From contig JBIOUG010000010.1 in NCBI GenBank assembly GCA_044866775.1, positions 9,052 to 73,051 on the forward strand: a stretch of DNA of 64,000 bases. The letters run 5' to 3'. The DNA comes from Thermoanaerobaculia bacterium (GTDB lineage Bacteria; Acidobacteriota; Thermoanaerobaculia; Multivoradales; UBA5704). Below the pieces are notes generated by a model that saw nothing but the letters and a program-made list of their open reading frames with translations, did not search any database and was not told where the DNA came from. Both the position numbers and the translations under genes were made by a program. Below are positions 9,001 to 18,000 of the stretch, in pieces; within the stretch, counting starts at the first letter, position 1, and every line of letters starts with the position of its first letter.

Positions 9001-12000
9001 CGGCGAGCACGTGGCGCCGCGCTCGCTCACCGAGGAGTTGCTGGCCGACATCTGGCGCGAGGTCCTCCGCCGCGAGCGCGTCGGGGTGCGCGACAACTTC
9101 TTCGATCTCGGAGGGCACTCGCTACTCGCCGCGCGCGTCGTGGCCAGGTTCCGCGCCGCGGCCGACCTCGAGCTGCCGCTGCGGGCCATCTTCGAGGCGC
9201 CCACCGTCGAGGGCCTTGCCGGACGCGTCGATGCAGTGCTGCTCGCGAGCGGCGTCGACGAGCGGGCTCTGGCAAGCCGGCTCCGCGGTCGCGGAACGCT
9301 GCGGTCGCTGATCCCGCCGCGTGCCGACCGCGACCGTGCGCCGCTGTCGTTCGCACAGGAGCGGCTCTGGTTCCTCGACCAGCTCGAGCCCGGCAACGCC
9401 GCCTACAACCTGGCGGCGGCGTGGGTGCTGAGCGGGCCGCTCGACGTCGCCGCGATGGCGGCGGCGTTCGACGAGGTGGTGTGCCGGCACGAGTCGCTGC
9501 GCACGCGCTTCGAGCCTGGCGCGGAAGGACCGGTCCAACGCATCAGCCCGCACGCGCGCTCACCGCTGCCGGTGGTCGACCTACAGGCGCTGCCGGAAGC
9601 GGCCCGCCAGGCGACCGCCCGCGCCCTGGCGGTGGCCGAGGCGGCGCGCGCCTTCGACTTGGTGCGCGGGCCGCTGTTCCGCCGCATCCTGGTGAAGCTG
9701 GCGGGCGGTGGCACGCCTGCGAAGGCGCGAACGCATTCGCGCCGGGCTCCAACCGAGGAGGCCGAGCACCTCCTCCTCTTCGCCCTGCACCACATCGTCA
9801 CCGACGGTTGGTCACAACGGGTGCTGCTCAACGAGCTCGCCGCCGCCTATGGGGCGTTCACGCGCGGCACGGCGCCGGCCTTGCCGGAGCTGCCGGTGCA
9901 GTACGGTGACTTCGCGGCCTGGCAGCGGCAGACGTTGACCGACGCCGCCGTCGACCGCCAGCTCGCCTTCTGGCGGCGGACCCTGGCGGGCGCGCCGGCG
10001 CTGCTCGAGCTGCCGACCGATCGCCTGCGCCCGGCGGTGCAGAGCTTCCGCGGCGGGCGGCTGGTGAGCCGTTTACCGGCAGGAGTCGTCGAACCGCTCC
10101 GCGGCCTCGGACGGGGCGGCGGGATCACGCTCTACATGGTGCTCCTCGCCGCCTTCCAGGCACTGCTCGCGCGTCACAGCGGCGCGGACGACGTCTCGGT
10201 CGGGACGCCGGTGGCCGGACGCCGCTACGAGACCGAGAACCTGATCGGGCTCTTCGTCAACACGCTGGTGATCCGCGCCCGACTGGGCGGCGACCCCACG
10301 TTCACGGAGCTTCTGGCGCGGACGCGCGAGGCGACTCTCGAGGCGTTCGCTCACCAGGACCTGCCGTTCGAGAGAGTGGTGGAACACCTGCAGCCGGAGC
10401 GGGCGCTGGGACACTCGCCGCTGTTCCAGGTGATGTTCGCCCTCCAGAACGTCCCCGGCGAGCTCGCGCCGCTCGGCGGCCTGCGCATGTCGCCACTCGA
10501 CATCCACACCGGGGCCTCGAAGTTCGACCTCACGCTGAGCCTGCACGAGACCACCGCCGGCCTCCGCGTGTTCGCCGAGTACGACCGCGAACTCTTCGAC
10601 CGGACGACGGTCGAGCGGCTGCTGGGCCGGTACGCGACCCTGCTCGCCGCGGCGGCGGCGGATGCGGTGCGGCCGATCTCGGAGCTGTCGTGGTTCACGA
10701 GTGCCGAGCGGCAGATGGTCGTGGAATGGAGCGAGGGCGGCCCGCTGCCGGCCGCCGCGCGCGAGGCCGCGCTGCTGCACGAGCTGGTCGCGGCGCAGGC
10801 GGCGAGGACGCCCGACCGCACCGCCTTGGTCTGGGCGCCGGAAGCCGGCCCGCGGGTGGAGCTGACGTACGCCGCGCTCGACCACGAGGCCAACCGCTTG
10901 GCGCGCCACTTGGCAGCGCTCGGCGTCGGGCCGGAGGTGCGGGTGGGCGTGGCGCTCGAGCGCACGGCGGAGCTCCCGGTCGCGCTGCTCGCGATCCTCA
11001 AGGCCGGCGGCGCTTACGTCCCTCTCGATCCCGCCTACCCGGCCGCGCGCCTGGCGCTGATGATCGACGACGCCAGCGCGGCGCAGGGCGGCTTCGTGCT
11101 GCTGACGCAGGAGCGGCTGCTGCCGCGGATCGAGCAGGTGCTCCGGGAGCTGGACGGGCGAACGTCTGGGGAAGGAGAAGAAGAGGAGCTGGGTAGGGAA
11201 GGCGGGCGTGCGACGAAGGTCGAGGTGCTCTGCCTCGATGGCGCCAAAGCCAACCTTTCTCTCTACCCAGAGGCTTTTGCTGTTTGCAAGCCGTTTCCCA
11301 CGAACCTCGCCTACCTGATCTACACCTCGGGCTCGACGGGTCGCCCGAAGGGCGTCGCCATCGAGCACCGGAGCGCGGCCGCGCTCGTACACTGGGCGCG
11401 CGCGTGGTTCTCCGACTCCGAGCTGGGCGGCGTCTTCGCCTCGACGTCGATCAACTTCGACCTCTCGGTCTTCGAGCTCTTCGTGCCACTGGCTTGGGGC
11501 GGGCGGGTGATCCTAGGCGCCGACGCGCTCGCCCTCGCGACGAGCGGGGCGGCGTCCGAGGTCACGCTCGTCAACACCGTGCCTTCGGCGATCGCCGAGC
11601 TGCTGCGGCTGGACGCCGTGCCGGCCTCGGCGCGGACGATCTGCCTGGCGGGCGAGCCGTTGCGGCGGGCGCTGACGGACAGGATCCATGCGCTGCCGAC
11701 GGTCGAGCGGGTCTGGAACCTCTACGGCCCGTCGGAGGACACGACCTACTCGACGTTCGCGCTCGTCGGCCGCGGCGAGGCGGGGGAGCCGACGATAGGG
11801 CGCTCCGTGGCCGGCACGCGCGCGCACGTGCTGGATCGGACGTTGGCGCCGTGCCCGGTTGGCGTGCCGGGGCAGCTTTACCTGGGAGGCGCCGGTCTCG
11901 CCCGGGGATATCTGGGGCGGCCGGAGCTGACGGCCGAGCGCTTCGTGCCGGATCCGTTCTCCGCCGCGCCGGGCGAACGGCTCTACCGCAGCGGCGATCT

Positions 12001-15000: not shown

Positions 15001-18000
15001 GTTCCAGAACCTGCCGGTCGAGGTCGCGCCACTGCCCGGGCTGCACGTGACGCCGCTGAGCGTCTACACGGGGGCCTCGAAGTTCGAGCTCACGCTCACT
15101 CTCGTCGAGAGAGCCGACGGCGGCCTCGGCGCATGGCTCGAGTACAACCGCGACCTCTTCGACGCGACGACGGTCGAGCGGCTCTTCGAGCACTACCGGG
15201 CGCTTCTCGCCGGCGTTGCGGCGGACGCGACGCGGCCGCTGTCGGAGCTGCCGTGGTTCACGGATGTGGAGCGGCACCAGCTCCTGGCCGAGTGGAACGA
15301 CACGCGACGCGAGGACGGCGACGCCGCGTTGGTGCATGAGCTGGTCGCCGAGTGGGTGCGGCGGCGGCCGGAGACGGTGGCGGTGGCGGGCGGGGGCGAG
15401 CGGCTGACCTACGCCGAGCTGGAGCGGCGGGCGGACGCGCTCGCGGCGCGGCTGCGGGCCCTCGGCGCCGGGCCCGAGACCCTGGTCGGGATCGCCCTCG
15501 AGCGCACGCCGGCGATGGTCGTTGCGGTGCTGGGCGTCATGCGGAGCGGCGCGGCCTACGTGCCGCTCGATCCGTCGCACCCGAAGGAGCGGCTGGGGCT
15601 GATCCTCGAGACGGCGCGGCCGCTGGCATTGGTGACACAGGCGAGCCTGGTGGCAGAGCTGCCCGAGCACACGGCGGAGGTGGTGCTCGTCGACCGTCCC
15701 GAGGGGGTTCTCGCCACCGATCTCGTCGTCTTCGCCGCGTCGCCACCCGCCGTCCAGCCGGAGCAGACGGCGTACGTGCTCTTCACCTCGGGCTCGACCG
15801 GAAGGCCGAAGGGCGTGCAGGTGCCGCATGGCGCGCTCGTCAACTTCCTGCTGTCGATGCAGCGCGAGCCGGGGTTCGGCGAGGGCGAGGCGTTGCTCGC
15901 CGTGACGACGCTGTCGTTCGACATCGCCGAACTCGAGCTCTTGCTGCCCTTGATCAGCGGCGGCCGGGTGGAGCTGGCGACGCGCGAGGAGGCCGCCGAC
16001 GGCGAGCTCCTCCAGCGGCGGCTGCGCGAGTCGGGCGTGGCGGTGCTCCAGGCCACGCCGGCGACCTGGCGCCTGCTGCTCGATGCGGGCTGGGAGGGCG
16101 ACGAGCGGCTGGTGGCGCTCTGCGGCGGCGAGGCGCTGCCGGGAGAGCTGGCGGTGCAGCTCCTGCCGCGGGTGGGCGCGCTATGGAACATGTATGGCCC
16201 GACGGAGACGACGATCTGGTCGGCGACGCGTCGCGTGCTCGCGGCGGAAGCAGCGGAGGCGACGGTGCCGGTCGGCGGCGCGATCGCCAACACGCAGCTC
16301 TACCTCGTGGACCGCGAACTCCAGCCGGTGGCGGTGGGAGTGGCGGGGGAGCTGGCGATCGGCGGCGCGGGTCTGGCGCGCGGGTACCTCGGAGCGCCGG
16401 AGTTGACGGCGGAGCGGTTCATGCCGGATTCGTTCGCTGCCGGGCCGGGAGCGCGGATGTACCGGACGGGCGATCTCGTGCGGTGGCGGGCGGACGGGCG
16501 GATCGACTTCCTGGGGCGGATGGATTTCCAGGTCAAAGTGCGGGGCTTCCGCATCGAGCTCGGGGAAATCGAGGCGGCGCTCCTGCGGCATGGGCACGTG
16601 GCGCAGGCGGTCGTGGTGGCGCGGGACGGAGAAACAGCTCAGGTAGGGAAGCGGCTGGTGGCCTACGTGGTCCCGCGGCGAGAGCAGGCCACTACCCTTG
16701 TAGGGGCGGAGCTTGCCTCCGCCCCGACGTCCGGCGCCGATCAGGCCAGGGCGGAGACAAGCTCCGCCCCTACAAGCGCCACCGCGGGGGCGGAGGCCTT
16801 CAAGGAGCTGCGCGCGTGGCTCGGGGCTCAGCTCCCCGACTACATGGTCCCCTCGGCGTTCGTGGTGCTCGACGCCTTCCCGCTCAATCCGAGCGGCAAG
16901 GTCGACCGCAAGGCGCTGCCGGCGCCGATCGCTGAGGCCGCGCCGGACGTCGACTACGCGGCGCCGCGCTCGCTGACCGAGGAGCTGCTGGTCGAGATCT
17001 GGGCCGACGTGCTCGGGCGCCCGCAGGTGGGCGTCTCTGACAGCTTCTTCGACCTCGGCGGCCATTCGCTGCTGGCGACGCGGGTGGTCTCGCAGGTGCG
17101 GCGGGCTTTCGGGGTGGAGCTGCCGTTGCGGCGGCTGTTCGAGCGGCCGACGGTGCGCGAGCTGGCCGCCGGCATCGACGAGGCGCTCCGCGGCGGCGAG
17201 GCCGCGCCGCAGGGTCCGCCGCTGGTCCCGGTGCCGCGGACGGGAGACCTGCCCCTCTCCTTCGCCCAGGAGCGGCTGTGGTTCCTCGAGCAGCTCGACC
17301 CCGAGAGCGCGGCCTACAACATGCTCGCGGCGTGGGTCCTCGAGGGCGCGCTCGACGTCGCGGCGCTGGCGGCGGCCGTGGACGGGGTGGTGCGGCGTCA
17401 CGAATCGTTGCGCACCGTCTTCGCGCCCGCCGCCCACGGCGCGGCGCAGCGCGTCGTGCCCCATGCGCCGGCGCCGCTGCCGCTGATCGATCTGCGGGCG
17501 CTGCCCGAGCCCGCCCGCAAGGCCGCCGCCCGCGCGCTGGCGCAGGCGGAGGCGGCGCGCGGGTTCGACCTGGCGCGTGGTCCGCTCTTCCGCCGCGCGC
17601 TCCTGCGACTGGCGGGCGGCGGCGGCGACGCCGCCGCATCGGCCGAGCACGTGCTCCTCCTGACGCTCCACCACATCGTCACCGACGGCTGGTCACAGGG
17701 CATCCTGGCCGCCGAGATCGCGGCGCTCTACAACGCCTTCGCGGCCGGCGCGCCGGACCGTCTGCCCGAGCTGCCCGTGCAGTATGCCGACTTCTCAGCC
17801 TGGCAGCGGTCGGCGTTGACCGCGCCAGTCCTGGAGCGGCAGGTGGACTTCTGGCGCCGCGAGCTGGCGGGGGCGCCGGCCCTCCTCGAGCTGCCGACCG
17901 ACCGCCCGCGCCCGGCGGTGCAGACCTTCCGCGGCGCGCGCCTGGCGCGGCGCCTGCCGGAGCCGCTCGCGCGGGAGCTGCGGGCGCTCGGCCGGTGCGA

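Follow-up and report, generated by a model that had tools for sequence, protein, structure and literature searches.

How do two assembly-line genes that lie in tandem and are collinear come to differ by two complete modules? The question is raised by a 64-kb stretch of contig JBIOUG010000010.1 from a Thermoanaerobaculia bacterium (the window; all coordinates are window positions), in which nucleotides (nt) 2–48311 are filled by three large + strand genes, ORF1, ORF2 and ORF3. ORF1 and ORF3 each encode a nonribosomal peptide synthetase–polyketide synthase (NRPS-PKS), and ORF1 has two modules more than ORF3. These modules, C-A(MT)-T and C-A-T (C, condensation; A, adenylation; MT, methyltransferase; T, peptidyl carrier protein or PCP), sit between an A*-PCP and a terminal block that both genes share, A* being an A domain with an Arg/His-rich pocket. 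The difference is probably a recombination mosaic, with junctions at a PCP motif and at the edges of the A-domain cores (Acores); this confidence applies to the mosaic and not to the direction of the events.

Two collinear lines and a two-module segment

The domain map, built from phmmer seeds and Pfam, gives the following layout:

ORF1, runs off the left end of the window with its stop at 24346, + strand: an uninterrupted frame of 8108 codons, in the order Aa-Ta, Cb-Ab-Tb, CurM-type sulfotransferase (ST), Cc-A*c-Tc, Cd-Ad(MT)-Td, Ce-Ae-Te, Cf-Af-Tf, KS-AT-ACP-TE
ORF2, 24664–30780, + strand: A(FkbM-MT)-T-C-A-T
ORF3, 30789–48311, + strand: an uninterrupted frame of 5840 codons, in the order C1-A1-T1, C2-A2-T2, C3-A3-T3, C4-A4-T4, KS-AT-ACP-TE (domains named 3.C1, 3.A1 and so on)

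ORF1 and ORF3 align in long blastn blocks with 74–85% nt identity and evidently represent old, diverged, collinear paralogous NRPS-PKS lines in tandem, each with its own KS-AT-ACP-TE. At the amino acid (aa) level, positional counterparts are 72% (Cb/3.C2), 71% (Cc/3.C3), 82% (Ac/3.A3), 80% (Cf/3.C4) and 81% (Af/3.A4) identical, and the terminal domains 88% (KS), 85% (AT), 98% (ACP) and 93.5% (TE). The KS motifs TACST, HGTGT and NLGH and the TE motif GASMG are present in both lines, the KS and TE domains of which look active. Modules d and e of ORF1 have no counterpart in ORF3, so the domain map bears out an initial annotation that placed two extra modules in ORF1 ahead of the shared terminal block. 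The GC content is 70–76% across the whole window. The features on which the comparison rests are these:

9125–17071, + strand: segment in ORF1 that is absent from ORF3, 7947 nt or 2649 codons, from just after the Ser motif of Tc to the end of the Ser motif of Te
9038–9226, + strand: Tc, PCP of module c; its FFDLGGHSL codons (9098–9124) mark the left junction
9344–10723, + strand: Cd, condensation domain of extra module d, sister to Ce; HHIVTDG at 9788
10790–13540, + strand: Ad, whole A domain of extra module d including the MT
10790–12070, + strand: Acore of Ad (A1 to A8), sister to the 3.A1 core
12241–13315 (approximate bounds), + strand: MT insert in Ad, not in 3.A1; Pfam MT core at 12362–12736, S-adenosylmethionine (SAM) motif VLEIGCGTG at 12422
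13622–13810, + strand: Td, PCP of module d, Tc-like throughout (79% aa); GGHSL at 13694
13946–15286, + strand: Ce, condensation domain of extra module e; HHIVTDG at 14348
15344–16900, + strand: Ae, A domain of extra module e; block ~15776–16670 is sister to Aa from 242 to ~1135
16985–17173, + strand: Te, PCP of module e, with a C-half of the same type as that of 3.T3; GGHSL at 17057–17071
2–1381, + strand: Aa, partial A domain at the window edge with its 5' part outside, sister to Ae
17255–18607, + strand: Cf, positional counterpart of 3.C4 (80% aa), in the Cd/Ce/Cf/3.C4 clade
32355–33914, + strand: 3.A1, A domain of ORF3 module 1, sister to Ad and without an MT insert
40758–40946, + strand: 3.T3, chimeric PCP, Tc-like in its N-half up to GGHSL (40830–40844), with a Te/3.T1/Ta-type C-half thereafter
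41022–42371, + strand: 3.C4, ORF3 counterpart of Cf

The segment 9125–17071 holds two exchange units, each made up of a T C-half, C, A and a T N-half. The Pfam domains of the segment are C, A, MT and A_C over the first half, followed by PP (C-half), C, A and A_C. The change in module number keeps the reading frame, and all C, A, MT and PCP motifs of the segment are intact, including HHIVTDG in Cd and Ce (and likewise in Cf), GGHSL in Td and Te, A3, A8, the Lys of A10 and the SAM motif. Both extra modules are predicted to be active; the residues that they would contribute, N-methyl-Ala-like and Gly-like, would follow the A* residue and precede the last Ser.

Junctions in the carrier domains and around the A cores

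Breakpoints were located with a simple maximum chi-square scan of our own (Fisher p), run over 166–924 candidate positions, and the p values quoted are uncorrected maxima. In a six-way DNA alignment that runs from A10 through the T domain and linker to the start of C, the identity between Tc and 3.T3 runs at 85.5% and 87.1% as far as the GGHSL codons and falls to 59.8% beyond them. From there on Tc is instead close to Td (81%), with which it also shares a longer T-C linker that the other four aligned T-C junctions do not have. In both genes the best breakpoint falls 3–9 nt after the GGHSL codons. The ORF1 switch is at 9127–9133 (GGHSL at 9110–9124; 93:31 on the left versus 8:34 on the right, p = 1.9e-10) and the ORF3 switch at 40847–40863 (p = 1.6e-10 against Te and 3.4e-14 against 3.T1). 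This places the junction inside the PCP, directly after the motif, where the initial annotation had suspected a PCP or linker position. The same annotation had called the N-terminal halves of these PCPs near-identical. They do align and are similar, but at only 86.8% nt and with ORF3 coordinates about 40 nt away from those proposed (ORF1 9010–9130 matches ORF3 40730–40850, not 40770–40890); the next two 60-nt blocks drop to 62% and 52%. In the protein, 3.T3 resembles Tc in its N-half and Te in its C-half (...GGHSLLAARV / ASRVREAFGVEVPLRRMF..., compared with ...VSQVRRAFGVELPLRRLF... in Te). The T C-halves pair in the same way as the C domains downstream of them: Tc with Td, as Cd with Ce, and Te with 3.T3, which are of the other type, as Cf with 3.C4.

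Domain relationships were established with neighbour-joining (NJ) trees (100 bootstraps) that included outside outgroups, namely 215 C and 148 A domains taken from two Thermoanaerobaculia loci and from the best homologues outside the window. The C domains of modules d, e and f and 3.C4 form a single clade apart from outside C domains and from the other C domains of the cluster, with the topology ((Cd,Ce)98,(Cf,3.C4)100)100. They are mutually 66–71% identical in aa sequence, except for Cf and 3.C4 (80%). The A tree contains the pairs (Aa,Ae)100 and (Ad,3.A1)100. Aa and Ae are 77% aa identical overall, and Ad and 3.A1 70% overall and 73% in the core. Other C or A pairs within the window are 37–55% identical, with the exception of the Ser-code A domains (62–65%). 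The best outside identities among the sampled homologues are ≤54% for the C quartet, ≤61.5% for Aa/Ae and ≤59% for Ad/3.A1, and for all parts of modules d and e the nearest relative is inside the window. The phylogeny and the identity profile thus agree with much of what had been noticed at the outset. The C domains near 9300, 13900, 17200 and 40990 are kin, the first inserted A domain is homologous to that of ORF3 module 1 with an MT insert in addition, the domains of modules d and e group with their proposed partners at bootstraps of 98–100, and identity is not uniform but changes at sharp local breakpoints.

The A domains are shared in part and not, as had been implied, as wholes. Module d is Ce-like through its C domain and becomes 3.A1-like at ~10703 (337:120 versus 132:335, p = 7.6e-45). 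In a sliding window, its aa identity to ORF3 module 1 jumps from ~50% to 85–92% at 10800–10860. A blastn match from 9861 had pointed to a start of the Ad/3.A1 block within the C domain; the sliding window identifies this as background C homology, and that start was rejected. The high identity between Ad and 3.A1 ends at ~12060, beside motif A8 (12038) and ahead of the MT insert. Module e is Aa-like over ~15776–16670 (88–95% aa, 82–88% nt), and its 3' boundary lies ~120 nt past A8 (16514–16546; p = 2e-15). The Asub and A-T linker of both modules are 75–79% nt identical to several modules alike, with no special affinity to the proposed partners, so the shared blocks are Acores (~A1–A8) rather than whole A domains. 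The Acore phylogeny is incongruent with the flanks, as Cd pairs with Ce and the T and Asub parts do not show the Aa/Ae or Ad/3.A1 pairing. Identity at third codon positions is 57–78% in the Aa/Ae core and mostly 41–57% (maximum 62%) in the C region of the more distantly related module d and ORF3 module 1, which argues for common descent of the A cores rather than convergence.

We propose that homologous recombination between repeated carrier-domain sequences gave ORF1 and ORF3 their different module numbers. With the junction directly past FFxxGGHSL, the differing unit would consist of a T C-half, the T-C linker, C, A and a T N-half, present twice. The C domains of the extra units fall in one clade with the terminal C, which points to a single T-C(-A) unit of the cluster having been duplicated serially. 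The Acores of Ad and Ae would have separate histories of core exchange or gene conversion within the cluster, in which Asub and the Asub-T interface were kept. Each extra Acore is sister to the position-'a' core of one of the genes: the Ala-type Ad to 3.A1 and the Gly-like Ae to Aa.

Both kinds of junction have published precedents. A natural NRPS breakpoint inside the T-domain motif FFxxGGxS, which defines the 'XUT' exchange unit, has been used to enlarge and shrink NRPSs (Bozhueyuek et al., bioRxiv 10.1101/2022.12.02.518901). As in XUT, the breakpoint described here is at FFxxGGxS, the T C-half travels with the downstream C, the module number changes, and the unit is made up of T C-half, C, A and T N-half. 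Unlike in the XUT cases, which are between homologous clusters of different Gammaproteobacteria, the sequences are two tandem paralogues in one acidobacterial locus, and two units are involved. In natural exchange of A domains it is mainly the Acore that moves, while Asub, its interface with T and the C-A linker stay in place (Baunach et al. 2021, PMC8097286); recombination hotspots have been located in the stretch between C and A and on the downstream side of the binding pocket (Calcott et al. 2020, PMC7486941). The window resembles these cases in that the history of the A domains is incongruent with that of C and T, the boundaries fall at the C/A junction and close to the A8 hinge, and Asub and Asub-T are retained. 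It differs in that the partner A cores are in the same window (in the same gene or the neighbouring paralogue), and in that the age of the copies (84% and 73% nt) makes donor and recipient indistinguishable. The kahalalide study (PMC11428043) describes a family of recombining NRPS paralogues in the single genome of Ca. Endobryopsis. In that respect the two systems are alike, since related NRPSs of one genome diversify by recombining among themselves, but the Thermoanaerobaculia locus has only two lines, in tandem, each with a terminal PKS-TE and a 3' end that evolves in concert.

The case fits the published rules of NRPS recombination in every feature and is a new instance, not a new kind. It brings no new principle and is a clean but ordinary natural example of assembly-line evolution, in which an FFxxGGxS junction and Acore-limited exchange stand side by side in 64 kb. 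Sequences of donor-like and of recipient-like type occur together, and every module looks functional. For engineers, the locus offers natural fusion points in very GC-rich Thermoanaerobaculia-like DNA; for students of evolution, it offers paralogous lines that are in concert at one end and diverge in module number at the other.

Age, direction and rival explanations

The initial annotation treated the second inserted A domain as a near-duplicate of the first A domain of the window and as an intragenic copy of it. The sister relationship holds, but 'near-duplicate' is too strong: the cores (242–1021 and 15776–16555) are 89% aa and 84% nt identical, and their synonymous divergence (dS; NG86, the method of Nei and Gojobori) is ~0.57. 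Values for the pairs of interest are as follows; in this DNA (73% GC, >90% GC at third codon positions) saturation is reached at ~0.70–0.83, the range of unrelated pairs:

C domains: Cf–3.C4, 0.375; Cc–3.C3, 0.49; Cd–Ce, 0.51; Cb–3.C2, 0.73
A domains: Af–3.A4, 0.52; Aa–Ae core, 0.57; Ac–3.A3, 0.60; Ad–3.A1, 0.81
Terminal domains: KS, 0.39; AT, 0.45; ACP, 0.12; TE, 0.24

Only the extreme 3' end has the status of a recent duplicate; all other copies are old, and those that had been taken for recent have dS values of ~0.5–0.8. The use of dS as a clock was rejected, the pairs of interest (0.38–0.81) overlapping with the unrelated ones.

The recent part is a block at the 3' end of each gene:

22568–24461, + strand: ORF1 3' block (C-terminal part of AT, ACP, TE and ~115 nt past the stop), in concert with ORF3 46557–48426

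The two blocks are 89.9% nt identical (ACP 96%, TE 92%), and the homology extends ~115 nt past both stop codons. A sister contig, L017 (JGI 3300036859; MurJ 88% aa identical), is syntenic with the window from 46.5 to 64 kb and its positions 1–1768 hold the last 1.8 kb, at the 3' end, of the ORF3 orthologue. In this part the identity to L017 is only 81.1% for ORF1 and 81.4% for ORF3. The blocks were evidently either homogenised since speciation or duplicated after it, and since they evolve in concert, the (Cf,3.C4) clade provides no basis for dating the d/e lineage relative to the split between ORF1 and ORF3.

To say that ORF1 'inserts' two modules, and that Ae was copied from the A domain of module 1, is to assign a direction to each event. 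The data are equally compatible with a deletion in ORF3 and with Ae as the donor to Aa. If ORF3 lost what ORF1 has kept, the ancestor would have had one or two d/e-type modules, which were removed by recombination between Tc-like and Te-like direct repeats in the PCPs at GGHSL, and deletion between direct repeats is the simplest event of this kind. The PCP 3.T3 is just the chimera that such an event would leave, with an N-half like that of Tc and a C-half of the Te type, and Tc, which resembles Td over its whole length, looks native, so that 3.T3 is more likely to be the recombinant. The C tree places the d/e lineage outside Cf and 3.C4, and nonsynonymous divergence (dN) between d/e and f (0.23–0.25) is greater than that of the pairs Cb/3.C2 and Cc/3.C3 (0.19). 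These dN differences are within ordinary rate variation, however, the tree argument is undermined by the concerted evolution, and in its C-half 3.T3 is more similar to 3.T1 and Ta than to Te. We put loss at just short of an even chance. Gain in ORF1 comes a little below that. Here the terminal T-C-A unit would have been duplicated twice in tandem after the ORF1/ORF3 split, the new A cores would have been overwritten from Ala- and Gly-type A domains of the cluster, and the apparent closeness of Cf and the 3' block to ORF3 would be due to later gene conversion. Such a history accords with the monophyly of the C quartet and is relieved of the dating implied by the Cf–3.C4 clade. It accords less well with Td and Te, which are not Tf-like (47–48% aa) but Tc-like (64–79%), a pattern that a simple unequal crossover between T3 and T4 fails to give, and along the C domains no window unites Cf with Cd or Ce while leaving 3.C4 out. 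A distant relative in a Thermoanaerobaculia metagenome-assembled genome (MAG; locus L002) has A*-T followed directly by KS, a weak hint of a low ancestral module number. Its C domains are ~50–55% identical to, and equidistant from, all C domains of the window, and it was rejected as an architectural outgroup and kept as that hint only. On balance we lean slightly towards loss in ORF3 by a crossover of Tc-type and Te-type PCPs. As to the A cores, an Ala-code A domain is located upstream of A* both in ORF3 (one module before) and in L002 (immediately before), which weakly suggests that Aa rather than Ae was the recipient.

The other explanations dispense with recombination inside the cluster and are much less probable. 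Selection on the binding pocket could make same-substrate A domains alike in modules that diverged vertically; sister A domains do have near-identical specificity codes, and A domains often cluster by substrate. The similarity, however, spans ~800–1200 nt including third codon positions, well beyond the pocket residues, the transitions are sharp, the nearest outside A domains sampled are less similar than the partners inside the window, and the flanking C, Asub and T have other nearest relatives, all of which leaves this account very improbable. Horizontal import of the modules from another cluster or organism is scarcely more credible: no positive evidence speaks for it, each part of modules d and e has its closest relative close at hand, and GC is uniform at 72–75%; the MT insert, or donors in the 5' part of ORF1 outside the window, could still have such an origin. 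Mis-joining or duplication of repeats during metagenome assembly would be a natural concern for a source that seems to be uncultured, its flanking proteins being recorded only on an NCBI contig and a Logan contig, and for repetitive NRPS genes, which are prone to mis-assembly. The paralogous parts differ from one another (60–90% identity), no exact repeat in the window exceeds 57 nt, and both long frames are open with all motifs intact, and we regard an artefact as the least probable of all.

Several observations weigh against a simple version of the recombination mosaic that we favour. The C-half of 3.T3 is 77–80% nt identical to 3.T1 and Ta and 70% to Te, so a single Tc × Te crossover is not a full explanation, and the history of PCP and module exchange is one of several steps. 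The p values are significant also after Bonferroni correction, but they are maxima over many positions from a home-made test. An additional breakpoint within Ce, from Cd-like to Cf-like, is not significant after correction, and the window edge cuts off the 5' boundary of the Aa/Ae block. The dS values are close to saturation, so that the order of events is not readable from distances. Finally, searches of genome contigs, metagenome contigs and proteins gave no orthologous cluster by which the events could be polarised. In alignment searches with A*, the best genome contigs are 54–55% identical (Thermoanaerobaculia MAGs) and metagenome contigs ≤27%; protein searches over the full query give ≤55% for module e and ≤57% for KS-AT-ACP-TE, and one protein match of 70% is a partial fragment equidistant from ORF1 and ORF3. 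The gene contexts of three homologues of the terminal block are truncated or broken and do not polarise the difference.

Predicted products and neighbouring features

Specificity codes were obtained by alignment to a GrsA segment, and substrates are presumed from published codes. At the orthologous position 'a', the code is DILALGMIWK (Aa) in ORF1 versus DLFNNALTYK (3.A1) in ORF3. The sister domains read DILALGMISK (Ae) and DLFNCALTYK (Ad), and we take the two pairs to be Gly-like (Aa/Ae) and Ala-type (Ad/3.A1). The code of Ab, DFWNIGMVHK, is presumably for Thr, and that common to Af, 3.A2, 3.A4 and 2.A1, DVWH[IV]SLV[DE]K, for Ser. Ac and 3.A3 have DPRNFVH[RQ]AK. ORF1 is accordingly predicted to build ...Gly-like, Thr, A*, N-Me-Ala, Gly-like, Ser, malonate, and ORF2 with ORF3 (Me)Ser, Leu-like, Ala, Ser, A*, Ser, malonate.

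The N-methyl group of the first prediction would be due to the SAM-dependent MT between A8 and A9/A10 of Ad (A8 at 12038, A10 at 13520). This stretch matches PDB entry 5WMM end to end (E = 1.6e-69); the entry is labelled only 'NRPS', and we take it to be the interrupted A-MT domain of TioS (A4-M4, N-MT). By homology to 5WMM, the MT of Ad probably methylates the α-amino nitrogen. The two proteins agree in the position of the MT, in full-length homology and in the presence of SAM motif I. Unlike 5WMM, Ad has a predicted Ala-type substrate and a sister domain, 3.A1, that lacks the insert. The first A domain of ORF2 (Ser code) is also interrupted, at 26317–26886, by an FkbM-family methyltransferase (PF05050), a family different from that of the MT in Ad.

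The A* domains (Ac, 7451–8956; 3.A3, 39150–40676) are 37–44% identical to the other A domains of the window. Their best match is the Lys2/α-aminoadipate reductase model TIGR03443 (456 and 441 bits; Ae scores 204 bits), and relatives with 51–56% identity and DPRH..FRAK codes occur in the Thermoanaerobaculia loci L001 and L002. In module b, the A domain appears to have been replaced as a whole: Ab (3116–4603) and 3.A2 (35640–37274) have a Thr and a Ser code and are 52% identical, their flanks are positional counterparts (C 72%, T 61%), the breakpoint is at ~2925–2939, and outside the window the closest relative of Ab (P0053) has 62% identity. The preceding C domains, Cb (1730–3058) and 3.C2 (34257–35585), carry HHIVTDD in place of HHxxxDG (HHHIVTDD in Cb) and stand before the Thr-code and the Ser-code module, respectively.

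The in-line ST of ORF1 (5087–5728, within an insert of ~900 nt at ~4936–5844) lies between Tb and Cc, right after the Thr-code module, and is homologous to the 'activating' ST domains of CurM and OLS (PDB 4GBM, E = 3e-63). Its position and homology suggest on-line O-sulfation of a hydroxy amino acid. ORF3 has no ST at this position but a short T-C linker that follows a Ser-code module, and L002 has the same T-ST-C-A* order after a Tyr-code module. Both lines end in KS-AT-ACP-TE (20552–24322 and 44502–48287) with no KR, DH or ER, and the released product should carry a β-keto acid, or a methyl ketone or pyrrolidinedione terminus derived from it. The nearest full-coverage homologues of this block, from a genome contig, a JGI metagenome protein and Thermoanaerobaculia MAGs, are 54–57% identical, and none of them is named as a characterised cluster.

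Taken as a whole, the locus may, though we hold this only tentatively, be a self-contained diversification system in which two sister lines still exchange sequence and make two related peptide-polyketides of an undescribed chemotype. The 3' block would have been homogenised after speciation, A cores copied between positions, and T-C-A units added or removed at the Ser motif of the PCP. The products would be 'x-Thr-A*-NMeAla-Gly-Ser-ketide' and 'x-Ser-A*-Ser-ketide', and the chemotype would be marked by an A* residue of Lys2-like type together with an in-line sulfotransferase of the CurM type and a β-keto extension at the end. If so, the locus would be a natural, internally controlled test case in Acidobacteriota for the XUT and Acore engineering rules. 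To our knowledge, the NRPSs of this phylum have been little studied. The chemistry of the two products, with the in-line sulfotransferase, the Lys2-like A domain and the terminal ketide, may be of more interest than the difference in modules.

The 3' flank of ORF3 codes for RlmL, TerC, ApaG, RNase D, MurJ and a TonB-dependent receptor. The MurJ homologues that bear a name (60–66% identity) are all from MAGs of Thermoanaerobaculia or Acidobacteriota, in keeping with an uncultured Thermoanaerobaculia-like acidobacterium as the most likely source. Directly downstream of ORF3 is a gene for a protein of 590 aa (48678–50450, + strand), which has no match in the Pfam scan and is conserved in the sister contig L017. 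Precomputed annotation of an identical Logan gene and of the L017 orthologue assigns it to PF22778 (VCPO_2nd, vanadium chloroperoxidase-like), and its product could be a tailoring haloperoxidase or a phosphatase-like enzyme.

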